The notes under the pieces are model-generated. The model was given only the letters and a program-made list of their open reading frames with translations. It was not told the origin of the DNA and searched no databases. DNA of 52,696 nucleotides, from IMG/VR virus record IMGVR_UViG_3300048091_000193, positions 1-52,696 of that record; one strand, given 5' to 3'. Position 1 is the stretch's first letter; the number at the start of each line of letters is the position of its first letter. Positions 7,778-20,266 of the stretch are shown here, piece by piece. Source of the stretch: a virus (lineage: Duplodnaviria > Heunggongvirae > Uroviricota > Caudoviricetes). The position numbers were made by a program, and so were the translations under genes.

Positions 7778-8019
7778 ACCGGGCACTTCCCATGGTTGCC
7801 GGGCCTGGGCGCCATGGAGGCGGCTACAGGGCTTTGAGGAACGGGCAGCTTTATAGGTGTTCGGTGGTAGGAACCGGTAGGGTCCATGGGATCCGCTAAT
7901 GCGGCCCGAGCCGGCCAAGGCGATCGCCATGGGGTTTCCCATGGGAGGGGCGGGGTCCGCCGTGTGGCTGGAATGCCACTGTGACGGTAGTGCCACGTGG
8001 CTTTTTGACCACGTGACTA

Positions 8020-8037
8020 TAAGTCAACACTGACTCA
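8020..8037. repeat. 18-bp palindrome family
   Basis: TAAGTCA-ACAC-TGACTCA; overlaps the stop of 8035-8235; left edge of the CC/GG-free island. Confidence 0.75.
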
Positions 8038-8235
8038 AAATTCGTGACGCGCTTGCGCATAGCGTTCATGCGCTTCTTGCATGTCTAGGACTTCGTCTTC
8101 GTCATAGTCCAGGAGATCGTCGACATCGACACTATCGAATGCAGCGCGTGCGAGTGCTTTCGCTGTCTTGCTGACGTGACGCTGGACTCGGTGCTGTGAC
8201 TGCGCTGCGCTCATAATCGCGTTATAGAAGCTCAT
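8035..8235 (-). CDS. Small protein with acidic C-terminus; no Gly/Pro/Trp
   Basis: 66 aa; leader CAACAGAGAGAACACGTC-ATG matches early-leader RBS style; DSVDVDDLLDYDEDEVLD tract. Confidence 0.7.
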   Translation of the reverse strand: MSFYNAIMSAAQSQHRVQRHVSKTAKALARAAFDSVDVDDLLDYDEDEVLDMQEAHERYAQARHEF

Positions 8236-8298
8236 GACGTGTTCTCTCTGTTGAGTGAAGCGAGAGAGCGCGCTTTGTCTGCGCGCTCTGTGTGACGC
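8236..8298 (-). promoter_or_regulatory. Early-leader-like intergenic element (hairpin + AGAGAG RBS)
   Basis: Minus strand: AGAGCGCGC-AGACAAA-GCGCGCTCT hairpin, then CAACAGAGAGAACACGTC-ATG. Confidence 0.55.
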
Positions 8299-8880
8299 TT
8301 ACAGCGCGATCTGAAAGTGTTCTGCGATCTTGACGACAGCAGCATTGTCGCGCTTGAGCGTAAACGTCTCGTCATTCGCTGCATTGCGCGCGACATTGAA
8401 CATATCGAGCGCGATCATCGCATTGATCGTGCTGTTGTGCTGCGTCGCAACAGTGCTCTGTGACTTCGTCGTCTGCACGCGCGTTGCTTTGATCTTCGCA
8501 TCAAACTTCGTCTTGATATCGTTCGAGCAAAGCGAAGCGATGACATCGCGCGTCACTTCAATCTTTGCATCTTCGAGCGCGAACATGCTGCGAATTGTCG
8601 CATTCGTGTAGACGTCAAGCTTGTCGAGTGCAGACGACGCTGCGAAGCGTGCAGTGGAGATCATCTTCTCAACTGCATATGCGTTCTTGCTGACATTCGC
8701 GACGCTGAAATTGCAAGCGACAAGCATTGCAACGACGTCGTCATGATCTGCAGCTTTTGCATACTTGTCGAGATTGCGCTGCATATTTGCATTGCTTGCG
8801 TTCTTCGTCAGTTCAGCTGCTTTGCGCATTGCGAATGCTGCAGCGATATCGGACTTGAGCGTTTCGATTGCGTTTGTCAT
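8299..8880 (-). CDS. Hypothetical protein with no Gly/Pro/Trp; paralogue of 6090-6932
   Basis: 193 aa from ATG 8880 after CACAACAGAGAGACACGACG; homology to 6090-6932 visible by eye; coding strand has zero GG and two CC. Confidence 0.8.
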   Translation of the reverse strand: MTNAIETLKSDIAAAFAMRKAAELTKNASNANMQRNLDKYAKAADHDDVVAMLVACNFSVANVSKNAYAVEKMISTARFAASSALDKLDVYTNATIRSMFALEDAKIEVTRDVIASLCSNDIKTKFDAKIKATRVQTTKSQSTVATQHNSTINAMIALDMFNVARNAANDETFTLKRDNAAVVKIAEHFQIAL

Positions 8881-8927
8881 CGTCGTGTCTCTCTGTTGTG
8901 TGTGCATCGCGTTGTTGCGATGACTAG

Positions 8928-8955
8928 ATAATAGCTATTAGACGCGAGTAAGCAA
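8928..8955 (-). promoter_or_regulatory. Candidate sigma70 promoter for the CC/GG-free operon
   Basis: Minus strand TTGCTT-N16-TATTAT, about 50 nt upstream of ATG 8880. Confidence 0.55.
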
Positions 8956-8969
8956 TTCACACATTGTTA

Positions 8970-8987
8970 CAAGTCAGAACTGACTTA
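8970..8987. repeat. 18-bp palindrome family
   Basis: CAAGTCA-GAAC-TGACTTA; right edge of the CC/GG-free island. Confidence 0.8.
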
Positions 8988-9135
8988 TACATTGATATGC
9001 ACGTATGGACGCGCATTCTCGCTCGATTAGCGATCGTGGGACTGGGTGTAGAAATTAAATTGCGAGAAGCGAAGTCCTAGAGAAATTTTGTTGCTTTGAT
9101 CCCATTGCCTTCTGGCTCGCCGAGACGATTCCATT

Positions 9136-9974: not shown

Positions 9975-10316
9975 CTAAAGTGAACCTTTTGCGCCGCGCA
10001 GGTTCGTTGTGTCGAGGTCGAGGGCTGCCAGGCGCTTCTTGTCGTCCTCGTCCCCATACACCTCTACCCAGCACCGATAGGTGGCGACAAGCATTTCTTT
10101 CATTGGCATGTTGCGTGCCGTCGCGGACATCTTGAACGCTCTGTGAAAGCCGATGGACGTCTTGAAGTTCATATCCTGGATGCCTGAATTAGGCCTCGAC
10201 AGATTGTCCGGGATCTCCTCGGTCTTCGGGATCGGGATATTCAGTCCGCGGTTGCGGGCGCGCGGAGGCGGCGGGACGCTGTTGGCTGGTTTTGGGGTCT
10301 CGTCTGTCATGCTCAT
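9975..10316 (-). CDS. Ribbon-helix-helix partition protein (ParG-like, type Ib partner)
   Basis: DMNFKTSIGFHRAFKMSATARNMPMKEML has the RHH pattern; flexible Pro-rich N-terminus; coupled to parA. Confidence 0.65.
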   Translation of the reverse strand: MSMTDETPKPANSVPPPPRARNRGLNIPIPKTEEIPDNLSRPNSGIQDMNFKTSIGFHRAFKMSATARNMPMKEMLVATYRCWVEVYGDEDDKKRLAALDLDTTNLRGAKGSL

Positions 10317-10954
10317 GATCCGGTCAGCTCGTTGGTGCGATCGATGATCTCCTGGGCGAGGGTGATCGAGCGCGCGTTCAAGGTGTCGTATTCGGTCTCC
10401 GCCAGCGTGCGGCCGGCGTTCTGGGCGTTCACATAGGCGGTCTTCACGGGGAGGGTGGTCTTCGCCACCTTGAAGCCGGCATCGGTGATGAAGGTGCGAG
10501 CCTCGTTGATGCCGGCGGGGCTATCGGTGACCTTGTTGAGGACGAACAGCATCTTGGCATTCGCCACGCCGCGGGCTTTCAGTTCCTGGCCGAACCGCAC
10601 CTGCGGCGCCAGGTCGTCGGCCGAGAGCCCGGTGGGGATCACGACCAGATCGGCCTCTTTGGCCAGCGACAGGGTCTGAGTGTCACTGTCGGGCTTGCCA
10701 TCGAACACCATGAGATCGAGCTCCATGGCGTTCTTCATCGCCCTGGAGACCTCAGTATAAGCTTCGGCCGGGATCTCGGGCTCGACGCCCTGGCCCATGC
10801 GCACAGCCGCCCAATCGACGGAGGTCTTCTGCTTGATGTTGAAGTCGGCGATCTTCACCTGCCACCCGCCGGTGGCATAGGTGCGCGCGATCAGACGCGC
10901 CAATGTGGATTTTCCCACTCCGCCCTTCTGTGAAAGGCAGGCTATCGCAAGCAT
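10313..10954 (-). CDS. parA: ParA-family partition ATPase (short, type Ib)
   Basis: Deviant Walker A SQKGGVGKST, IADFN, Walker B MVFDG, ADLVVIP; 213 aa with no N-terminal HTH. Confidence 0.9.
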   Translation of the reverse strand: MLAIACLSQKGGVGKSTLARLIARTYATGGWQVKIADFNIKQKTSVDWAAVRMGQGVEPEIPAEAYTEVSRAMKNAMELDLMVFDGKPDSDTQTLSLAKEADLVVIPTGLSADDLAPQVRFGQELKARGVANAKMLFVLNKVTDSPAGINEARTFITDAGFKVAKTTLPVKTAYVNAQNAGRTLAETEYDTLNARSITLAQEIIDRTNELTGS

Positions 10955-11039: not shown

Positions 11040-11756
11040 TTAGGCGACGGTCAGTTTGACGACGGATTGAGGCGCCAAGAACGACGTGCCCCAGTTAGAT
11101 CCGAGATAGCGAAGGCCCGACTTGGCGGGTTCCGGCTCGATCTTCATCGGCATGGTCGCCTGCATAAGCTTCATCGCATCCTTGAGCTTTTCCACGGTAA
11201 GCGTTGAAGTATTTGCGGAATTCGTGGTCGGTGGACCGGCAATAGCAGAGCCAAGGCTGGCCGAGAGGGCATTCAAGGCAGCGACATTGAGCTTCGGCGC
11301 TCGGATGATCGCATCGGTCCAGCTGTCATCGGCCTCGACGATCACATCGATCCGGGCCTGAATATCTGGCTCCTTGTGATCAGCGGGCTCGAACGCCGGC
11401 AGGTCGAACACCCACTCGTAGTCCTCGAGGCTGATCATCAGGACAGGCCACCTGAAGCCGAGACCAGGCCGATCGCTTTCGCTGAATTCGACGGCGGATT
11501 CGGGAACCCAAAACCGCTTCTTCATCTCCTCAATGCCGAAATAGATGATGTCGGTCTGGTGGATAAAGCTATTGCGAGTGTCGAGCTGAAAACTGCGGCT
11601 CTCATCAAACACGCCGCCATATTCGTCGATCTTGGCGTGATCGATATGGATCTGCAGCCTGCCGCGCGCATCAAGCTCGGTCTGATGCGACGTCAGATGA
11701 CCGACCAGCTGCGCATAGCCGCCCAGCCAGACCTGAAGTGGGCCTTTGACGATCAT
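11040..11756 (-). CDS. Hypothetical protein
   Basis: 238-aa ORF coupled to the kinase gene; no recognised motif. Confidence 0.6.
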   Translation of the reverse strand: MIVKGPLQVWLGGYAQLVGHLTSHQTELDARGRLQIHIDHAKIDEYGGVFDESRSFQLDTRNSFIHQTDIIYFGIEEMKKRFWVPESAVEFSESDRPGLGFRWPVLMISLEDYEWVFDLPAFEPADHKEPDIQARIDVIVEADDSWTDAIIRAPKLNVAALNALSASLGSAIAGPPTTNSANTSTLTVEKLKDAMKLMQATMPMKIEPEPAKSGLRYLGSNWGTSFLAPQSVVKLTVA

Positions 11757-12367
11757 GCCGCGGCCTGTGCCCAGGAATAGTCGATCACGAGCTGGTGGAT
11801 CTTAGCCTCGAGATCCTTACGGGCGTCCGCCGGCGCCAGGCCGCGGGCTAGCCCGTCATTCTCGATCCAGACGCTGACCGCGCTCTCGTCGAACCGATCG
11901 AAGGCGTTGCCAGTCGGCTGCGCCTGCGGGTTCCGGATGCCGATGATCAGCCCGCCGCGCTGCACGAAGTAGTGGCCCTGGGTCTTGCGCACCGAGCCGA
12001 ACGAGAAGGGGCCAGGTCCGACCAGTCCGGCTGCAGCCGTCATCGGCATCACGAATTCACCCATCAGGGTCTCGAGCATCTCGCCGGCCCGGCCGAGCAC
12101 GATGCGCCAGGTCATGTGTTCGCCGGTGCGCGCGTCGATGTTCGGTGCGCCGTCGGGCCAATAGGCGAGCTTGGCTTTGCCTTCCTGGGTGTTCACGTCG
12201 TCGGGCTTGGCGCCGAAGTGACGCATTGCGAGATCGCGCAGCACAAAGCCGTCGTCGACCGGCGTCACGCCGTAGTGATTGAGCAGGATCTCCTGGACCA
12301 GGGACTTGCCCGATTTCGGGTGACCGCAGAGCGCGATGAAGCGGGGCAGTTTGTAGATGTTTCTCAT
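11753..12367 (-). CDS. Deoxynucleoside monophosphate kinase-like P-loop protein
   Basis: IALCGHPKSGKS at N-terminus, LRDLAMRHFG, WRIVLGRAGE: layout of phage dNMP kinases. Confidence 0.65.
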   Translation of the reverse strand: MRNIYKLPRFIALCGHPKSGKSLVQEILLNHYGVTPVDDGFVLRDLAMRHFGAKPDDVNTQEGKAKLAYWPDGAPNIDARTGEHMTWRIVLGRAGEMLETLMGEFVMPMTAAAGLVGPGPFSFGSVRKTQGHYFVQRGGLIIGIRNPQAQPTGNAFDRFDESAVSVWIENDGLARGLAPADARKDLEAKIHQLVIDYSWAQAAA

Positions 12368-12370
12368 TTG

Positions 12371-12388
12371 TAATTCAGTTCTGACTTA
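12371..12388. repeat. 18-bp palindrome family
   Basis: TAATTCA-GTTC-TGACTTA, 3 nt upstream of the kinase start. Confidence 0.75.
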
Positions 12389-12635: not shown

Positions 12636-14240
12636 TCACGCAGCTTTGCGCATATTAAACAGATGCCAAGGTAGATCCTGCCCGTCCGGAATGATGCCTT
12701 CGGCAAAGCCCGGCGTGGTCTCGACGATCGCACGGCGTTCCTTGGCGTGATCGCGCAGCGTCGAGTTGAGCTGGTCGCGGTAATCGACGATGAATGCCAC
12801 GTTCGGACCCTTCTTCTTGGCGCGCAGCCCGCGGCCGATGCGCTGCCGGTGGGCAACCTCGGCTTTGCCGCCGCCGGCAAGGATCACCAGACCGATCGCC
12901 GGCACGTCGACGCCGACATCGACGATGGTGGTGCCGATCAGCGCATCGAGCTCGCCGCTCGCCAGGTCATTCAGCGCCTTCTTGCGCTCGACCTGATCAT
13001 TCTCGCCCTGGATCTGCCGCACCTTCAGTCCCGCGGCGCGCAGCATCTTCACCAGGATCGGGCCGTGGGCCTTGCGCTGCACCAGGATTAGGGTCGATAG
13101 CCCGTGCGCCTTGGCCTTCTTCGCCATTTCGACGACATGACTGTTGCGGGTCTCGGACTCGGTAATCCCGAGCTGATAGGCGCGCTGCCAGGGTGACGAC
13201 TTGCGCAGCTTCGTCGCCGGCGGGGGATCTGCGAACAGGAAATAGGGCTTGGCCAGCACGCCGCGCTTGATCAGCGTATCCTCTGACACCGTCAGCAGGA
13301 TGGGGCCGAACGCAGCCATCAGCCGCATATTATCTTCTTCGTTGCCCCGCATGAACGGCGTCGCAGTCAGAGCCACCCGGATATGGGCGTTCTTGCACCA
13401 GCGCAGGATCTCGTAATACGAATTGCCGCCCGCCTCGTGCGCTTCCTCGCCGATCACCACCTCTATCATCTCGAGGATCTTTATCAGCCGGTTCCGGACC
13501 TTCACCTTCTGGTCGTAAGCATGCTGGCCGAGCGCCGCGATCTGCTCGCGGGTGAGATGTAGTTCCTTGATTGCGTCCTGGCGCACGATCTCCAGGCGCT
13601 CCGCCTCGAGCTTGGGCTCCTCCAGCTGTGACACCAGAGTCTGCACCATGCCGACATTGATGCCCTTGGTCGGCGTGAATTGCCCGTCGCCGATGACGCC
13701 GACGTTGAACTTACAGTCGCGCTCGAAGGCTTCCTTCATCTGATACATCAGGACGCCGCGCGTGGTGATGAACAGGGTCGGGCGCCGGTAGCGCGCCGTG
13801 ATCAGCTTTGCGATCTTGGATTTGCCGCCGCCGGTGGCCACCCGAATGATGCCGCGGCCGTGCTTCTCGACCTGGCGCACCGCCTTCATCTGGAAGTCGT
13901 AGCGCGGGTCGTCATTGCCGAATTCATCGACGATCGGGTTCTCGGGACCGTTCGGCGCCGGCAGCGGGCGCCGTGCCAGCATCACCTGGTAGCCCTTCCG
14001 GGTCAGCTCGTGCTGAACCATGTGAACGAAGCCGGCCGGGAACATGCAGGTGCGGCGCGCAAAGAAGCTCGATCGGCCATTCCAGCCGCCCTGGCTGAAC
14101 GTATTCATGCGCTCGTGGCCGAGAACGACGTAGCTCAAGACCTTCGTCACCACGTCTTTCACCGCGGTCAAATGCGCCGGATCGACCGGGGTGACTTTGG
14201 CGTCGATCGCATTGAAGGCGATTTTGACGATCTGTTTCAA
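12636..14240 (-). CDS. Superfamily 2 DEAD/DEAH-box helicase (UvsW/XPB-like)
   Basis: Walker A ATGGGKS, motif II variant GEEAH, ALTATP, VGVDVP, QRIGRGLR. Confidence 0.9.
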   Translation of the reverse strand: MKQIVKIAFNAIDAKVTPVDPAHLTAVKDVVTKVLSYVVLGHERMNTFSQGGWNGRSSFFARRTCMFPAGFVHMVQHELTRKGYQVMLARRPLPAPNGPENPIVDEFGNDDPRYDFQMKAVRQVEKHGRGIIRVATGGGKSKIAKLITARYRRPTLFITTRGVLMYQMKEAFERDCKFNVGVIGDGQFTPTKGINVGMVQTLVSQLEEPKLEAERLEIVRQDAIKELHLTREQIAALGQHAYDQKVKVRNRLIKILEMIEVVIGEEAHEAGGNSYYEILRWCKNAHIRVALTATPFMRGNEEDNMRLMAAFGPILLTVSEDTLIKRGVLAKPYFLFADPPPATKLRKSSPWQRAYQLGITESETRNSHVVEMAKKAKAHGLSTLILVQRKAHGPILVKMLRAAGLKVRQIQGENDQVERKKALNDLASGELDALIGTTIVDVGVDVPAIGLVILAGGGKAEVAHRQRIGRGLRAKKKGPNVAFIVDYRDQLNSTLRDHAKERRAIVETTPGFAEGIIPDGQDLPWHLFNMRKAA

Positions 14241-14272: not shown

Positions 14273-14290
14273 TAAGTCAGTTCTGACTTA
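14273..14290. repeat. 18-bp palindrome family
   Basis: TAAGTCA-GTTC-TGACTTA between the divergent helicase and ParB-like genes. Confidence 0.85.
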
Positions 14291-14302: not shown

Positions 14303-14971
14303 ATGCAGCTGCCAAACCAAATAGTCGTAGAAATCGGCCTTCTGCGCCCGAACCCGTGGAATTCCAATCACGTTTCACCCGATAACGAGGAGAAACTGCA
14401 GGAGTCCATTCGTCAGTTTGGACTGTTCAAGCCGATCGTGGTGCGGGACAAGTTGGACTATTACGAGATCCTGGGCGGTCAGCATCGCTGGGAAGCGGCC
14501 AAAGAGGTCGGACTCACCGAAGTTCCCATCTTTGTCGTCGAGGCCGATGACAACATGGCCAAGCGGATCACGCTGGCCGACAACGCGCGCTACGGCGCCG
14601 ACGACAGCATCGAACTCGCAAAGCTGATGGAGGAGATCGGGACTTCCGAAGATCTTCAGGGGTTCTTGCCCTACACCGACGCTGACGTGAATGCTATTTT
14701 CTCTCACGTCAATATAGCGCTCGATGAGCTGGATCTGTCGGGCGGATTCGAAGAAACCGAAGAAAAAGTCGTCGAGCCGAAGGCTGAGCGGGTCGCCAAG
14801 ACTCACACGATGATGCGTTTCAAGGTCGGCATCACCGACGCCGAGAAGATCACCGCGCTGATCGCCAAGATTCAGAAGCGCCAGGGTCTCACAGCGTCGG
14901 ACGAGCTGACCAATGCCGGCGACGCGTTGGTGTTCGCGCTGCTCAATGCAAGCGCCGGTGAGGACGACTGA
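14303..14971 (+). CDS. ParB/Sulfiredoxin N-terminal-domain protein 1
   Basis: LRPNPWNSN, SIRQFGLFKPIVV, ILGGQHRWEAA, ADNAR; no obvious HTH. Confidence 0.85.
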   Translation: MQLPNQIVVEIGLLRPNPWNSNHVSPDNEEKLQESIRQFGLFKPIVVRDKLDYYEILGGQHRWEAAKEVGLTEVPIFVVEADDNMAKRITLADNARYGADDSIELAKLMEEIGTSEDLQGFLPYTDADVNAIFSHVNIALDELDLSGGFEETEEKVVEPKAERVAKTHTMMRFKVGITDAEKITALIAKIQKRQGLTASDELTNAGDALVFALLNASAGEDD

Positions 14972-15156
14972 TGTTCGTCAAGCCGCGCCACGACGAGTGC
15001 AAAGGCTGCAAGTTCTTCAATCCGAACCGGCCTGCGCGCGAATGTCTGCCGTGCGGCAATGGTGAATTCTTCGAGGCGCGCATCCGCGATCGCGCTCCGA
15101 CCGACAACGAACTCATGAAAATGTATGCAGGGATGGGCTATGACCACGACGATTGA
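14971..15156 (+). CDS. Small Cys-rich protein
   Basis: CKGCKFF...CLPCGNGEFF; TGATG coupling. Confidence 0.6.
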   Translation: MFVKPRHDECKGCKFFNPNRPARECLPCGNGEFFEARIRDRAPTDNELMKMYAGMGYDHDD

Positions 15157-15847
15157 TGTCTCCAAGCTGCCGATCGAGGTCTGGGATATCACCCGGCTCA
15201 TTCCGCATCCGCAGAACGCTAAGAAGCACCCCGACGACAAGACCAAGCTGCTGTCGAAGTCGATCCAGCGCATCGGCATAGCCAATCCGATCCAGGTCGA
15301 ACCGCCCATCTATGCCGACGGCGAGACCAACCCAGAGCCTGGCCTGATCATCGCAGGCCACGGGCGCCGGCTCGCTGCGCTCGATGCTGCCTGGGCCAAG
15401 GTGCCGGTGATCGTGCGCCACGACCTGACCAAGCTGGAATGCGCCGCGCTGCGCATCGCCGACAACACCACGGTTTCGAACGATTACGACACCGAGCTGA
15501 TGAAGATGGAGATCAACCTGCTCGGCGACGGCGGGTTCGAGCTCGATGCCATAGGCTTCGACGACAAGCAGCTGCAAACCATGGTCGACGACTTCGGCGA
15601 TCTGGATAACGACGTCTTCGTCGAAGACATCGGCCAGGCCGTGGAGACCCAGAAGACCGAGAACGTTGCGGCAGCGGCTGCGATCGACCAGTCGGCGGCG
15701 CCGATCGGCGATGCCCTGGGCTTCAAGCGCGTCACCGTCGAGCAGAGCCGCAAGATCCGCGAGCTCATGGATGCGGCCGCGGGCAAGTTCACCGGGCTGA
15801 ACAAGAGCCCCGCCGAGATCCTGATCGCTGTGCTGGAGGACTATTGA
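15140..15847 (+). CDS. ParB/Sulfiredoxin N-terminal-domain protein 2
   Basis: LIPHPQNAKKH, SIQRIGIANPI, IIAGHGRRLAA, LRIADN. Confidence 0.85.
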   Translation: MTTTIDVSKLPIEVWDITRLIPHPQNAKKHPDDKTKLLSKSIQRIGIANPIQVEPPIYADGETNPEPGLIIAGHGRRLAALDAAWAKVPVIVRHDLTKLECAALRIADNTTVSNDYDTELMKMEINLLGDGGFELDAIGFDDKQLQTMVDDFGDLDNDVFVEDIGQAVETQKTENVAAAAAIDQSAAPIGDALGFKRVTVEQSRKIRELMDAAAGKFTGLNKSPAEILIAVLEDY

Positions 15848-16200
15848 TGGCTGAGATTATCAACGCCTTCGGGCGCAAGGCTGGCGATCCGCTGCCCGTC
15901 AGCGAACCGGTCAAGATCAAGGTCTGCAGCGCATCGTTGACGCTTATCAAGGAGCTCACGCGCCTGGTCGAAGCCGGCGAGGTGCGTAATCTGTGCGCTA
16001 TCGGTGTCAGTGACGGGCGCCCCGTCGCGGCATTCGGTATCCATACCCAGGAATTCAGCGAAATGGCGCTGCTTAGCGTCGCCGCGGACAGTCTGAAGGA
16101 GCGCCTGCGCGACATCATCGGTCAATTCCGGTCCGCCGTTCAGACCATCGAAGATGGCGACGACGATATGTATGACGGCGACGAGGATCAACCCTCGTGA
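15847..16200 (+). CDS. Hypothetical protein
   Basis: Coupled on both sides; acidic tail. Confidence 0.6.
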   Translation: MAEIINAFGRKAGDPLPVSEPVKIKVCSASLTLIKELTRLVEAGEVRNLCAIGVSDGRPVAAFGIHTQEFSEMALLSVAADSLKERLRDIIGQFRSAVQTIEDGDDDMYDGDEDQPS

Positions 16201-16907
16201 AATACATCATCGACAAGCGCTTCAATACCTCGGTTGAGCGCACGCCCCGCGTTCTCGAGGTTGCCGAAGGCTTCGGCCTGGGCCTGACCGACAAGGAATT
16301 CGTCATCTACGACAATTTCGAGGTCGAGGTGATGCCGGGCGATGTCATCTATGTCACCGGGCAGTCCGGATCCGGCAAGTCGCTGATCCTCAACGAGATG
16401 GCGCGGCAGATGGCCGACGAGGGCCTGCGCGTCGCCGATCTGAACAAGCTCGACCTGCCGAACAAGCCGGTCATCGAATGCGTCGGCGAGACGACCACCC
16501 AGGCTGCGGATCTGCTGGCGAAAGCTGGGATCTCGGACGCCTATATCTACCTGCGCAAGCCGTCGGAGCTGTCGGACGGGCAGCGTTATCGCCTGAAGCT
16601 TGCCATTCTGATGGGCATGCCGGCCGATGTCTGGGTCGCTGATGAATTCGGCGCCATTCTCGACCGTGTCACCGCGAAATGCGTCGCCTTCAACATGCAG
16701 AAGGTCGCCCGCGCGCTCGGCAAGACCCTCATTGTCGCCACCACGCACACCGATCTGAAGGACGAACTAGGTCCGTCGCTGACGATCACCAAGCGGTTCC
16801 GCCAGAAGATGGAGCTCGATCGCGCCATCGCCGAGATCGTGCCGCCCGTCGAGAGCGGGCCTTTCACTCGCTCGGTCGTCGAGACCGGGGAGGTGGAACG
16901 TGTTTGA
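16197..16907 (+). CDS. Stand-alone ABC-type ATPase (COG2401-like N-terminal part)
   Basis: Walker A GQSGSGKS, signature LSDGQRYR, Walker B WVADEF, H-loop VATTH; no permease nearby. Confidence 0.85.
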   Translation: MKYIIDKRFNTSVERTPRVLEVAEGFGLGLTDKEFVIYDNFEVEVMPGDVIYVTGQSGSGKSLILNEMARQMADEGLRVADLNKLDLPNKPVIECVGETTTQAADLLAKAGISDAYIYLRKPSELSDGQRYRLKLAILMGMPADVWVADEFGAILDRVTAKCVAFNMQKVARALGKTLIVATTHTDLKDELGPSLTITKRFRQKMELDRAIAEIVPPVESGPFTRSVVETGEVERV

Positions 16908-17031
16908 TCGCATGTCCTCCGCCGGCGTGTTCCTGGCTTTTCTGCTGCTGGTCGCCACCTGGGGCGGGCTGGTCTATGTGATGCGTGAGGACACGGCCGC
17001 GCCGCCGGTGATCGATCGGGTGATCCATTGA
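16900..17031 (+). CDS. Small single-pass membrane protein (43 aa, not in ORF track)
   Basis: GTG start after GGAGG; MFDRMSSAGVFLAFLLLVATWGGLVYVMRED...; overlaps both neighbours. Confidence 0.5.
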   Translation: MFDRMSSAGVFLAFLLLVATWGGLVYVMREDTAAPPVIDRVIH

Positions 17032-17942
17032 TCTCAGGGAGCGTCACTGGTGCGTCCGAAGACCCGAGTGCATACGACACGCTTGTAGAGCGTGCGGACG
17101 CACCACGACCCCGTTTCTCGCTGCTCGACAGCATGATTGTCGAGCGGGGCACCAAAGCTGACTGGGATCTGCTGCACGATCTGCACTACAAGGCCGAAAA
17201 CCTGCCGATCGGGCCGCGTTTCTGGAAGCTGACGCTCTACGGCGAGACCATCGGCGTGCTCGTGACCGCGAACCCGAAGGGGCTTTTGAAGGAGCGCCAC
17301 ATCGCGTTCCCGAAGATCAAGCCCAAGGGGTCCGACGGCAAGATCCAGAACACCTATCGCTACGTCTTCATCAACAAGAACTTCCGCGTCATCTCGCGTT
17401 TCGTGGTCGACACCATGTATCGCGGCATCGGCGCCGGCTACCGGATGATGAACCTGGTCTCGCGCATGGAGGGCAACACCTTCATGGAGATCCAGTCCTC
17501 GATGTCGAAATTCAACCTGTTCGGTCAGAAGGCAGGCTTCCGCTTCGTCAAGCCGATGAACGCCAACAAGTATGAGGCGGGGCTCAAGTTCTTCCGGACC
17601 AACTTCGCGAGCTCGCCGCAAGACTTCGAGGCGATCCTGGCGGAGCTCGAGTCCAAGGACCAGGCCGGACGCGATCGGCTGCTGCAGGAATGCAAGGACT
17701 TCTACTATCGCCATTCGGCGCTGGAGAAGACCGGCAACAACCGCGACAAGGGGCAGGGCCGCGTCGACGGCATGGACGCCCGGACGATCATCAAGGGTAT
17801 TCAGCAGATCACCCTGGCATCGCCGATGTATGGCATCTGGAAGAACCCGGATGCCGGACGCCCAGTCCCACAGCGGCTGCCGCTCACGGCATTCGAGAAG
17901 CAGGGTCCCAACGAGCCGTCGAACCTGGTCGGCCTGGAATGA
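17028..17942 (+). CDS. GNAT-fold acetyltransferase-like protein (COG2401-like C-terminal part)
   Basis: ISRFVVDTMYRGIGAGYRMM resembles the acetyl-CoA binding motif A; LHDLHY N-terminal motif. Confidence 0.7.
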   Translation: MISGSVTGASEDPSAYDTLVERADAPRPRFSLLDSMIVERGTKADWDLLHDLHYKAENLPIGPRFWKLTLYGETIGVLVTANPKGLLKERHIAFPKIKPKGSDGKIQNTYRYVFINKNFRVISRFVVDTMYRGIGAGYRMMNLVSRMEGNTFMEIQSSMSKFNLFGQKAGFRFVKPMNANKYEAGLKFFRTNFASSPQDFEAILAELESKDQAGRDRLLQECKDFYYRHSALEKTGNNRDKGQGRVDGMDARTIIKGIQQITLASPMYGIWKNPDAGRPVPQRLPLTAFEKQGPNEPSNLVGLE

Positions 17943-18199
17943 CCAGTATCTTCGCCTCGACCGCAAAGCAGACCGAGATCATGACCATCGTCTGCGCGGC
18001 GTCATCGCGCGGGGCGGAGATTTCGACCGGCGATCTGAGGGCTGCCCTGAGCTGGGCGCCGAAGCTTGCCGCTTTCCACTGTTCGCTGAAGTTCCTCAAG
18101 GACCACGGCATGCTTGTGGTTGAGAATCACGGCCGCAATGGTGGCACCGTGAGGCCGACTACTGCCGGATATGCCTTGTTCAAGCCGAAGCCAGTCTAA
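17939..18199 (+). CDS. Small winged-helix protein (86 aa)
   Basis: ATGA overlap; MTSIFASTAKQTEIMTIV...SLKFLKDHGML...VRPTTAG follows a helix-helix-wing pattern. Confidence 0.6.
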   Translation: MTSIFASTAKQTEIMTIVCAASSRGAEISTGDLRAALSWAPKLAAFHCSLKFLKDHGMLVVENHGRNGGTVRPTTAGYALFKPKPV

Positions 18200-18213
18200 T
18201 CCCGGAATTCCGG

Positions 18214-18277
18214 GTCCTCGCTTCGTCTATATAAACACTATCTCTAATAGTTAGTAGTTAAGAGACGAAGCGAGGAC
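18214..18277. promoter_or_regulatory. Twin hairpin element, copy 2
   Basis: 15-bp inverted repeat GTCCTCGCTTCGTCT/AGACGAAGCGAGGAC around a 34-nt AT-rich loop, just upstream of the small terminase. Confidence 0.65.
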
Positions 18278-18302
18278 TTGGAAATCTCCGGGACAAAGGA
18301 TA

Positions 18303-18326: not shown

Positions 18327-18986
18327 ATGCCTGATCCAGACGATGAAAATAGCTCCGGCCCGGAGAAAAAGCGACTTTCGCCAGAGGATTGGCGCGAGAT
18401 CGAGGTTCATTGGGAATGGGGCACCATGCGGACCAAGGAGATCTGCTCGAAGTGGGGCATCACTCCGTCCGCGGTCGCGCAGCATTTCGAACGTCTGAAG
18501 AAGGCCGGCACGCCGATCGTCAAGGGTGCCAAGAAGATCGAGCTCCAGAAGCAGGCCGCGGCGCGGGTCGCCGGCGGGGCCGCGGTTCAGACCGCAAACA
18601 AGGTCATCTCGGAATTCGAGAGCAAGCGCAAGGACCGCATCGAGCAGGTCAAGGAGATGGCCTACCGCTCCTCGATGAGCGTGAAGCAGCAGTTTGCGAA
18701 GGTTCAGAAGGAGATCGCCGACGGCGCCCGCACCCTGGAGGGCTCCTACAATGCCTTCAAGTCGCTGCGCATGGCCGAGGCCTTCCTGAAGCTGAACAAG
18801 GACAACCTCTACGACGTCCTGGATATCGCGACCGACGTCGACGACCGCGACCTGCCGACGCTGGTGTTCGAGGATCTCACCGAGACCGAGATTCTGGCGA
18901 TCCAGGCCGGCGAGGATGAATTCGACGACGATATCGAGCTGCCTGATGCGCCGGACGATGACGACATCATTGAGGACAAGGCGTGA
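18327..18986 (+). CDS. terS: Terminase small subunit (putative)
   Basis: N-terminal HTH (KEICSKWGITPSAVAQHF), acidic tail, coupled to terL. Confidence 0.65.
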   Translation: MPDPDDENSSGPEKKRLSPEDWREIEVHWEWGTMRTKEICSKWGITPSAVAQHFERLKKAGTPIVKGAKKIELQKQAAARVAGGAAVQTANKVISEFESKRKDRIEQVKEMAYRSSMSVKQQFAKVQKEIADGARTLEGSYNAFKSLRMAEAFLKLNKDNLYDVLDIATDVDDRDLPTLVFEDLTETEILAIQAGEDEFDDDIELPDAPDDDDIIEDKA

Positions 18987-20266
18987 CCACCCATCGTCAC
19001 GTCCTGAAGATGCACGGCAAACAGCGCGAGGTCTTCCAGGATCCGCACCGGTTCAAGTGCGTCGTCGCCGGACGTCGTTGGGGTAAGACCCAGCTTTCCA
19101 AGCTGAAGATCTGCAAAGCCGCGACCAAGGCCAAGCAGCTGATCTGGTATGTCGCGCCGACCTACGCGATGGCGCGCGGCATTCTGTGGGAGGAGCTGAA
19201 GGACGCGATCCCGCGTAAGTGGGTCCATTCCTACAACGAAACCCGCATGACCATCCGGCTGCACAATGGCACCCGGATCGAGCTCAAGGGCGCCGACAAG
19301 CCCGACACCCTGCGCGGCGTCGGTCTGAACCTGCTGATCATCGACGAAGCGCAGGATATCAAGCCCGACACCTGGTATAAGGTGTTGCGTCCGACGCTCG
19401 CCTCGACGCGCGGCGAAGCCATCATCATCGGCACGCCGAAGTCCTTCAACTGGCTCTACGACGTCTACATGCTGGGTCAGCAGGGCGAGACGATCGAGAT
19501 CACAAAGGGTCGGAACAAGGGCCGGCGGCGCCCGAACCCCTGGAAGTCCTGGCAGTTCCCGACCATCACCTCGCCATTCATCCCCAAGGGTGAAATCGAG
19601 GCGGCGCGCGCCGACATGGACGAAAAGTCGTTCCGCCAGGAATTCGAGGCGTCGTTCGAGACGATGTCCGGCCGCGTCTATTACACCTTCGATCGCAAGG
19701 TTCACGTCGGGCAGTATCCGTTCAATCCGAGGCTCCCGATCTGGGTTGGCCAGGACTTCAACATCGACCCAATGTCGTCGGTCATCATGCAGCCCCAGCC
19801 GAACGGGGAAGTGTGGATCGTCGACGAGGTGGTGCTGCGCGGCTCGAACACGCAGGAGACCGCGGACGAGCTCTCCCGGCGATATTTCAAATGGCAGAAG
19901 CAGACCGTCATCTATCCAGATCCGGCCGGCGCGCAGCGATCGACCAAGGGCCGCGGCGAGTCCGACATCGATATTCTCAAGGATGCCGGCTTCAAGTGGA
20001 TCAAGGTTCGCCGCAAGCATCCGAAGATCGCCGATCGCGTCAACGCGGTGAACCGCATGTTCAAGGCGGCCGACGGCACGGTCCGGATGCGGATCGACTC
20101 GACCTGCAAAAAGACGATCGAGGCCTTCGAGCAAACGACCTACAAGGAAAACACCCGCGAGGTCGACAAGACCAAGAACATCGAGCACGCCGCGGACGCC
20201 TGCGGCTATTGCATCGACATTGAATTCCCGTGGAAGGACAAGACCGCGTTCGGCATCTCTATCTAG
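18983..20266 (+). CDS. terL: Terminase large subunit
   Basis: AGRRWGKT Walker A, LLIIDEAQ Walker B, GTPKSFN, FRQEFEASF, GQDFNIDP and HAADA nuclease acidic residues. Confidence 0.95.
   Translation: MTTHRHVLKMHGKQREVFQDPHRFKCVVAGRRWGKTQLSKLKICKAATKAKQLIWYVAPTYAMARGILWEELKDAIPRKWVHSYNETRMTIRLHNGTRIELKGADKPDTLRGVGLNLLIIDEAQDIKPDTWYKVLRPTLASTRGEAIIIGTPKSFNWLYDVYMLGQQGETIEITKGRNKGRRRPNPWKSWQFPTITSPFIPKGEIEAARADMDEKSFRQEFEASFETMSGRVYYTFDRKVHVGQYPFNPRLPIWVGQDFNIDPMSSVIMQPQPNGEVWIVDEVVLRGSNTQETADELSRRYFKWQKQTVIYPDPAGAQRSTKGRGESDIDILKDAGFKWIKVRRKHPKIADRVNAVNRMFKAADGTVRMRIDSTCKKTIEAFEQTTYKENTREVDKTKNIEHAADACGYCIDIEFPWKDKTAFGISI

Follow-up and report, generated by a model that had tools for sequence, protein, structure and literature searches.

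A terminase-linked module of two ParB-N proteins, an ABC ATPase and a GNAT-fold protein in a relative of Rhizobium phage RHEph10: a split COG2401-type system that probably acts on viral DNA

The caudoviricete virus record IMGVR_UViG_3300048091_000193 of IMG/VR has direct terminal repeats and is a complete virus genome of 116,696 bp. The stretch of DNA that was analysed, referred to as the window, is the first 52.7 kb of it (52,696 nt). The virus is related to Rhizobium phage RHEph10, and at a greater distance to Pseudomonas phage nickie and the Salmonella phage-plasmid SSU5. The subject of this study is a cluster of genes at 14303-18199 of the window, directly before the terminase genes, which encodes two proteins with a ParB-N domain (ParB1 and ParB2), an ABC ATPase and a GNAT-fold protein. 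These four proteins are one functional unit, a split version of the ABC-GNAT and ParB-ABC-GNAT proteins that elsewhere form single chains, and the module probably acts on viral DNA around packaging.

The cluster consists of eight genes on the + strand, in which each junction overlaps by 1-32 nt. All eight open reading frames (ORFs) were found where an earlier interpretation of the window (the sequence-only reading, made from the DNA letters and without database searches) had placed them as a coupled series. Its observation of the cluster was confirmed overall, and its interpretation was partly supported. The locus is composed as follows:

12636-14240, - strand: superfamily 2 (SF2) helicase, ResIII/Helicase_C (PF04851, 6.7e-15; PF00271, 5e-13; phrog_16, 4e-90)
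14273-14290, no strand: palindrome in the helicase/ParB1 spacer
14303-14971, + strand: ParB1, 222 aa (PF02195, 6.7e-16; phrog_723, 3.7e-56)
14971-15156, + strand: CxxC...CxxC protein, 61 aa, four Cys, zinc-ribbon-like, accessory
15140 (or 15125)-15847, + strand: ParB2, 235-240 aa (PF02195, 3.8e-5; phrog_930, 2e-53)
15844-16200, + strand: 118-aa protein with an acidic tail, no family assignment, accessory
16197-16907, + strand: ABC ATPase, 236 aa (PF00005, 3.4e-11; phrog_293, 4.5e-42)
16900-17031, + strand: 43-aa hydrophobic membrane peptide, GTG start, GGAGG 7 nt upstream
17028-17942, + strand: predicted GNAT-fold protein, 304 aa (phrog_886, 1e-121; fold model)
17939-18199, + strand: winged-helix-like (wHTH) protein, 86 aa (HTH_41, 0.002, a weak match; phrog_900)
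18327-18986, + strand: putative small terminase (terS-like) with an N-terminal helix-turn-helix (HTH) (phrog_867, 2e-20; HTH_5, 8e-4)
18983-20266, + strand: terL, large terminase (55-84 % identical to terL of relatives; RefSeq annotation in RHEph10 and nickie)

The wHTH gene had been listed as an ORF of 17690-18199; within it, an ATG in the same frame at 17939 shares bases with the GNAT stop codon. Its end is separated by a gap of 127 nt from the start of the terS-like gene, which is followed by terL, whose start it overlaps, and by the portal gene. The terS-like gene is designated a putative small terminase by its position directly 5' of terL in 56 of 61 related phage loci. In these loci the order helicase/ParB1/ParB2/ABC/slot/GNAT/terS/terL is invariant (the slot being the place between the ABC and GNAT genes), with the helicase in the same position in 48. 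Because homologues were present in matching order in 55-61 of the 61 loci, the genes of the cluster are not chance ORFs.

The ATPase has a Walker A motif (GQSGSGKS, residues 55-62), a signature motif (LSDGQ, 125-129), Walker B (D149-E150), a D-loop (D156) and an H-loop (TTH, 182-184), and the Walker A, signature, Walker B and D-loop motifs are invariant in an alignment of the split and fused proteins combined (A3). About 63 residues lie between Walker A and the signature, and the helical subdomain is short. The AlphaFold2 (AF2) model, with a predicted local distance difference test score (pLDDT) of 86.8, matched ABC nucleotide-binding domains (NBDs) with Z scores of 15.5-18.2, and the structural matches included MCR activation component A2, ABCE1, PhnK/L and ABC-F proteins, which are soluble and not involved in transport. 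No permease was found, whether in this operon or at the 61 related phage loci, and the 43-aa peptide, which is not conserved, is the only membrane element. It had been claimed that the ATPase possesses all ABC motifs, is not accompanied by a permease and is not a transporter; the named motifs and the lack of a permease were verified, but a glutamine for the Q-loop could be recognised neither in the sequence nor in the consensus of A3. As there is no permease and the ATPase is of the soluble NBD type, a transporter function is ruled out. An SMC/Rad50-type ABC protein is disfavoured to the extent that no SMC, Rad50 or RecF chain occurred among the 50 best matches, which were all NBD-type.

The 304-aa protein is a predicted GNAT-fold acyltransferase. 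Its AF2 model (pLDDT 90) has the GNAT fold, Foldseek and VIA-align returned GNATs only, and VIA-align gave Z scores of 10-11.7 over 124-150 residues to many GNATs, all of them tied. The family profile matched GNATs of the PDB at motifs A and B (3fb3, E 0.0028). Invariant residues in the alignment of the family (A1) are H53, Y54, R90, R124, R132-G-x-G135, E154, M159 and N163, while Y268 is nearly invariant, and the acyl-CoA pyrophosphate loop is formed by the invariant motif A, R132-G-I-G135-A-G. A helical insert of ~80 aa (residues ~182-263) lies inside the fold. The fold model, the profile matches and the invariant R-G-x-G loop thus bear out the GNAT acetyl-CoA motif that had been recognised in this large gene, and from their invariant motifs both the GNAT and the ABC parts look like active enzymes. 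The comparison with Mom and TmcA that had been suggested brought no such agreement, the protein being no closer to them than to any other GNAT. Neither the sequence profile nor Foldseek or VIA-align gave a signal of specific kinship to Mom, TmcA or NAT10 above that of generic GNATs.

An exhaustive phmmer search with the GNAT protein as the query returned many proteins of 450-500 aa that match it over their C-terminal halves and that have, according to Pfam, an N-terminal PF00005 domain and weak GNAT matches. The ATPase is 36-49 % identical to the N-terminal halves of these fused ABC-GNAT proteins (BLASTP 1e-36 to P0173), the archaeal ones showing 46-50 % identity and E values of about 1e-67, and the GNAT protein is 26-28 % identical to their C-terminal halves (BLASTP 6e-21 to residues 218-465 of P0173). 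The split and the fused family (A2) share, as invariant residues, the H-Y pair, three Arg, Gly, Glu, Met and Tyr of the GNAT protein, but not N163. As both proteins are homologous to the two halves of the fused ones and share their invariant residues, the suggestion that a COG2401 protein occurs here in split form holds. In each of the 61 phage loci ABC and GNAT are separate genes. Relatives are labelled 'ABC-type ATPase with/fused to a predicted acetyltransferase domain' or 'MK0520' by JGI and in some phage records of GenBank; literature searches on COG2401 or the fused enzyme found no published functional study.

Triple fusions of ParB-N, ABC and GNAT also exist (P0216, P0217, P0245) and are common: the best 120 clusters are of ~630 aa and cover 83-100 % of the query, and many have both PF02195 and PF00005. 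Some are named 'ParB N-terminal domain-containing protein' and come from Bathyarchaeia, of which several are found among the best 120 clusters. In addition, a ParB-N gene directly adjoins, and often overlaps, the two-domain fused gene in 13 of 80 genome loci, 12 from Planctomycetota and one from Nitrosocaldus. Among remote homologues (P0255, P0205, P0168, P0240) ABC-GNAT was found fused to PolB (1260 aa), to a DnaA-like AAA+ protein (897 aa) and to TFIIB repeats (665 aa), and in one copy of the same set the ABC domain is interrupted by an intein that carries a LAGLIDADG endonuclease. Some of the PolB, DnaA-like and TFIIB fusions could be read-throughs of gene calling. The N-terminal ~440 aa of two further fusions of 880-910 aa (P0182, P0199) gave no match.

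The 80 loci with the fused gene comprise about 24 from Planctomycetota, about 55 from Thermoproteota archaea and one from Bacillaceae. When all neighbouring ORFs were clustered, the large terminase (Terminase_6N/6C) was the neighbour of the fused gene that is conserved best. A hidden Markov model of TerL located it within 3 kb and on the same strand in 50 of the 80 loci, many of the others being truncated contigs, and the TerL-linked loci span Planctomycetota, Bathyarchaeia/Nitrososphaeria and a Bacillaceae prophage. TerL is 5' of the fused gene in some loci and 3' in others, frequently with overlaps of 3-18 nt, so it is the adjacency to the terminase that is kept and not the order. Tail and head genes are further neighbours, and the 80 loci are therefore (pro)viruses. 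The helicase was not beside the fused gene in these cellular-genome loci; as a constant neighbour it is confined to the phage lineage. Since the fused form exists and the terminase adjoins it in bacterial as well as archaeal viruses, the module probably acts on viral DNA around packaging. In the Fredinandcohnia humi prophage (L028:7956-12553) the fused ABC-GNAT gene is followed by Amidoligase_2 (PF12224, 1.6e-47), a 90-aa ORF, terL and a 488-aa ORF in the position of the portal gene, so that a ligase that forms amides and the acyltransferase stand side by side at the start of a packaging operon.

ParB1 consists of a ParB-N domain of the CTPase fold and an uncharacterised C-terminal half. It matches the N-domains of Spo0J, ParB and Noc in the PDB at 1e-12 to 1e-8, and the GxxR of box II is conserved in both ParB1 and ParB2. 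The N-domain of ParB2 is most like the ParB part of ParB-methyltransferase fusions (phrog_498, 3e-28; N-terminal part of PADLOC MTase_II, 6.4e-19). The Pfam scan found PF02195 alone, and no HTH or ParB_C domain, in either protein. Box II of ParB1 (residues ~56-63) reads GGQHRWEA. The box II of DndB, GQHRVEA, belongs to an ATP/GTP binder, and a ParB-acetyltransferase fusion with box II GNHRLEA binds GTP specifically (PMC12704722). The GQHRWEA of ParB1 is nearer to these two than to the GERRxRA of CTP-binding partition ParBs, and because of this likeness ParB1 may bind a purine nucleoside triphosphate (NTP). ParB1 is present in 55 and ParB2 in 57 of the 61 phage loci.

The remaining genes are less constant. 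The zinc-ribbon-like protein (CxxC...CxxCxxGEFF) has its four Cys kept in 20 of the 61 phage loci; the gene is absent from SSU5, and its position in nickie holds an unrelated, Cys-free ORF of 53 aa. The 118-aa protein gave no match in Pfam, PHROG, NCBIfam or PADLOC and has homologues in just 7 loci, and the wHTH protein is kept in 34. All three are accessory. The 43-aa peptide between ABC and GNAT has a single transmembrane core (maximum Kyte-Doolittle 2.3) and no homologue in the 61 phage loci. In one relative (L098) the slot is empty and the ABC and GNAT genes are directly coupled, and in others it holds DUF2829, other genes or unrelated small single-pass or lipoprotein-like peptides. The sequence-only reading had pointed out a membrane peptide between the two halves: the ORF with its good start and transmembrane core is there, but it is not a conserved link, and the variable slot rules out a conserved linker or anchor. 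The peptide is probably a real moron-type gene and not a part of the enzyme. The ABC-GNAT gap in the loci L086-L143 is an insertion hot spot that has repeatedly received unrelated small single-pass membrane peptides, and the peptide families seen there are one of 32 aa (L090, L137, L142), one with a lipobox (L091, L093, L094) and one with 'RRDDDDLPPTGG' (L134-L136, L139).

As to function, we tentatively favour the view that phage DNA receives an acyl mark, in an ATP-coupled reaction, before packaging or in the course of it. The ParB-N proteins, as NTP-gated DNA clamps or activators, would bring the enzyme to replicated phage DNA, where the ABC domains would dimerise on ATP and drive the engagement of the substrate, as a counterpart of the helicase domain of TmcA/NAT10. 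The GNAT protein would then move an acyl group from acyl-CoA to the DNA, most likely to an exocyclic amine of a base. If the marking took place shortly before or during packaging by the terminase, the virion DNA would carry the mark, and the phage might benefit by protection against host nucleases or by control of early expression.

We favour acyl-marking because there are precedents for ParB-partnered enzymes and for NTPase-coupled GNATs, and because searches of the 116.7-kb genome brought up neither a DNA methyltransferase nor Tet/JBP or ThyA. The NTPase-coupled GNATs TmcA and NAT10 acetylate nucleic-acid bases. In vivo, one subclass of phage thymine dioxygenases (clade E 5mYOX) depends on a ParB-like protein that has no HTH, and genes for ParB and terminase count among the commonest neighbours of such dioxygenases (PMC13229309). 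Fusions of ParB with methyltransferases and with acetyltransferases are documented as well (PMC12704722). The experiment on the dioxygenases and the likeness of ParB2 to methyltransferase fusions uphold the view that ParB-N proteins accompany DNA-modifying enzymes of phages. The DNA proteins that were found as other fusion partners (PolB, DnaA-like, TFIIB) are further support. Viral DNA and the terminase are the common denominators across Salmonella, Rhizobium, Planctomycetota and Bathyarchaeia hosts.

A more specific proposal would make the module an ATP-driven DNA acyltransferase that writes an undescribed acyl mark, e.g. N-acetylated cytosine, adenine or guanine, during packaging, that is ancient and shared by bacterial and archaeal viruses, and that explains a CC/GG-free early operon in the Rhizobium- and Pseudomonas-phage branches. 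We regard this proposal as possible but doubtful. The genome contains a single CC/GG-free island of ~1 kb, at 8000-9000 of the window, with 1 CC/GG per 600 nt compared to 80 expected at 8.2 kb (observed/expected 0.01), and nickie has a similar island at 103.8-105 kb (L147; 0 per 600 nt compared to 61-69 expected). No other dinucleotide pair has a comparable desert, although TA reaches 0 in one 600-nt window near 30.8 kb. The whole genome of SSU5 (L144, L145, L002) has no CC/GG-free island, the lowest observed/expected ratio being 0.51. As SSU5 has the module without the island, a link between the two is possible but not obligatory. The zinc ribbon was rejected as a correlate of the island, because the nickie ORF in that position is without Cys.

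Several observations weigh against a DNA mark. The CC/GG-free operon is its sole compositional hint, and it is missing in the module-bearing SSU5. The GNAT protein gave no acceptor-specific signal, with Mom, TmcA and NAT10 tied with small-molecule and protein acetyltransferases at the Z scores given above. DNA methyltransferases flip bases without ATP, which leaves the need for an ABC engine unexplained. No paper was found that reports modified DNA in phages of this lineage. SSU5, moreover, carries two annotated methyltransferases alongside the module. The sequence-only reading had noted that there is no methyltransferase and that the GNAT takes its slot; while none was detected in the present genome, this is not a trait of the lineage, and because SSU5 has both, the GNAT is not simply a substitute for one.

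The machine could instead acetylate a protein, either a packaging component such as the terminase or portal or a DNA-bound protein, with ParB as the tether and ABC as the clamp. Protein or N-terminal acetyltransferases make up the majority of characterised GNATs and of the best structural matches (Ard1, NatA, RimI, HP0935), and among soluble ABC ATPases there are some, e.g. MCR component A2 and PhnK, that work on protein complexes. From archaea to Proteobacteria TerL alone is conserved as a gene partner, so that the target might be a viral protein and not one of the host. Against this reading, the DNA-binding proteins of the hosts are wholly different from one host to another, and the fusions to PolB, DnaA-like, TFIIB and ParB proteins put the enzyme at the DNA and away from capsid and terminase; we consider a protein target unlikely.

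A small-molecule substrate such as a polyamine, nucleotide or antibiotic-like compound is rather unlikely, and so is a role in host takeover or anti-defence apart from phage DNA. Polyamines accompany packaged DNA, and the top Foldseek matches of the GNAT protein are polyamine and arylalkylamine N-acetyltransferases. These matches are, however, tied with all other GNATs, and the ParB fusions, the other DNA-protein fusions and the terminase linkage would be left unexplained. Known defence systems were rejected as well, PADLOC giving only generic ATPase matches (mad3, mad8) and no defence family for the GNAT.

The adjacency to terL and the frequent translational coupling with it in distant lineages would also fit a non-modifying packaging accessory, in which ParB-N and ABC recognise or ready the packaging start site or the concatemer for the terminase and the GNAT is an acyl-CoA-binding or structural module; ParB-fold proteins do bind and clamp DNA. 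Nevertheless, the full set of catalytic-looking GNAT residues is invariant across the split and fused families, which argues for catalysis, and a separate terS-like gene is present, making such an accessory quite improbable.

It is highly improbable, and largely ruled out, that the two ParB genes together with the ATPase serve the partition of a phage-plasmid. In favour of this are the ParB_N domains, the plasmid replication of SSU5-type elements and a phage-plasmid survey in which ParB genes that occur twice are counted with the partition genes (PMC7969092). Against it, the genome has a ParA pair apart from the module, nickie retains the two ParB genes although no ParA is annotated there, no HTH or ParB_C domain was detected in ParB1 or ParB2, archaeal proviruses have this ParB joined to ABC-GNAT in one chain, and the ABC domain is not a ParA-type ATPase. 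The separate pair lies within 9975-10954 and consists of a small ParA (213 aa, 10313-10954, - strand; phrog_164, 1.3e-24) followed by a 113-aa partner (phrog_6024). It is probably the real, type-Ib-like partition system of the element, and its ParA is 3.3 kb from the ParB genes and on the opposite strand.

The public annotation of the module genes is misleading. In the RefSeq records of RHEph10, SSU5 and nickie (L001, L002, L003) the GNAT is labelled 'ABC transporter ATP-binding subunit', the ATPase 'ABC transporter', ParB2 'DNA methyltransferase' and ParB1 'partition protein', and such mislabelling is routine in phage records. The SSU5/pHCM2/pKpn phage-plasmids, which carry the module, are a large group in Enterobacteria (PMC7969092). 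If the DNA is marked, an acyl-type, ATP-dependent chemistry would be added to the known phage DNA modifications, COG2401 would gain a role, and the concept of ParB as an activator of DNA-modifying enzymes would be extended. Even with a protein target the module would be among the few non-structural gene sets that are linked to the terminase from phage-plasmids of Enterobacteria to proviruses of Bathyarchaeia.

The 62-nt spacer between the helicase and ParB1 contains a perfect palindrome, TAAGTCAG-tt-CTGACTTA, at 14273-14290, 12 nt 5' of the ParB1 start codon. With up to 3 mismatches, the 18-nt palindrome TAAGTCAG-NN-CTGACTTA occurs at ~14 intergenic sites of the window, compared to 0 expected:

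8020, 8970, 12371, 14273, 20276, 22958, 23017, 23982, 29369, 34970, 42938, 47190, 49057, 51324: palindrome sites

Copies are located before ParB1, before the portal gene and at both flanks of the CC/GG-free operon. The recurrent palindrome may act as an operator or promoter peculiar to the phage, or form an RNA hairpin. A helicase and a deoxynucleoside monophosphate (dNMP) kinase-like gene had been described as transcribed divergently from the ParB1 spacer; this is correct for the helicase, but the other gene (11753-12367, - strand) is downstream of the helicase and lies behind a palindrome copy of its own (12371-12388). Its likeness to a dNMP kinase is a weak match at the P-loop only (phrog_139, 5e-7), with no Pfam match. 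In the spacer between the wHTH and terS-like genes an inverted repeat at 18205-18286 has 24-nt arms that are 88 % complementary and 34 nt apart, with a central TATATA, and it may mark a separate control point for the terminase operon.

The module can be compared with several known systems. With ParABS it shares the ParB N-terminal NTPase fold, with the GxxR of box II in ParB1 and ParB2, but ParABS has an adjacent ParA, which is absent here, and an HTH and a dimerisation domain, which were not detected here, and the ATPase partner in the module is of the ABC type. Phage Mu Mom has the same GNAT fold and is a late gene product acting on phage DNA before packaging. Mom (8bv8) was matched with a Z score of 10.7, an rmsd (root-mean-square deviation) of 3.5 Å over 150 residues and a Foldseek E value of 4e-4, tied with ~50 other GNATs and with no match at the sequence level, and it works without an ABC ATPase or ParB proteins, both of which the module possesses. 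TmcA and NAT10, which are among the Foldseek matches (2zpa, 9j3c), combine an NTPase with a GNAT to acetylate a nucleic-acid base, as is proposed here, but their NTPase is a RecD-like helicase domain and that of the module an ABC domain; Pfam gave no match to DUF1726/TmcA_N, Helicase_RecD, GNAT_acetyltr_2 or the tRNA-binding domain in the module at E <= 0.1. The COG2401/MK0520 type has the same ABC and GNAT halves with the motifs conserved in both. It is a single chain, mostly from (pro)viruses of Planctomycetota and Thermoproteota archaea, whereas in the phage module the ABC and GNAT genes are separate, with the variable slot in between, and two ParB-N proteins are encoded on their own. The ParB-dependent thymine dioxygenases and the ParB-N::methyltransferase fusions likewise join an HTH-less ParB-N domain to an enzyme near terminase genes. 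They use a dioxygenase or an S-adenosylmethionine-dependent methyltransferase where the present module uses a GNAT and an ABC ATPase, and the module is a variant of these ParB-partnered nucleic-acid-modifying modules.

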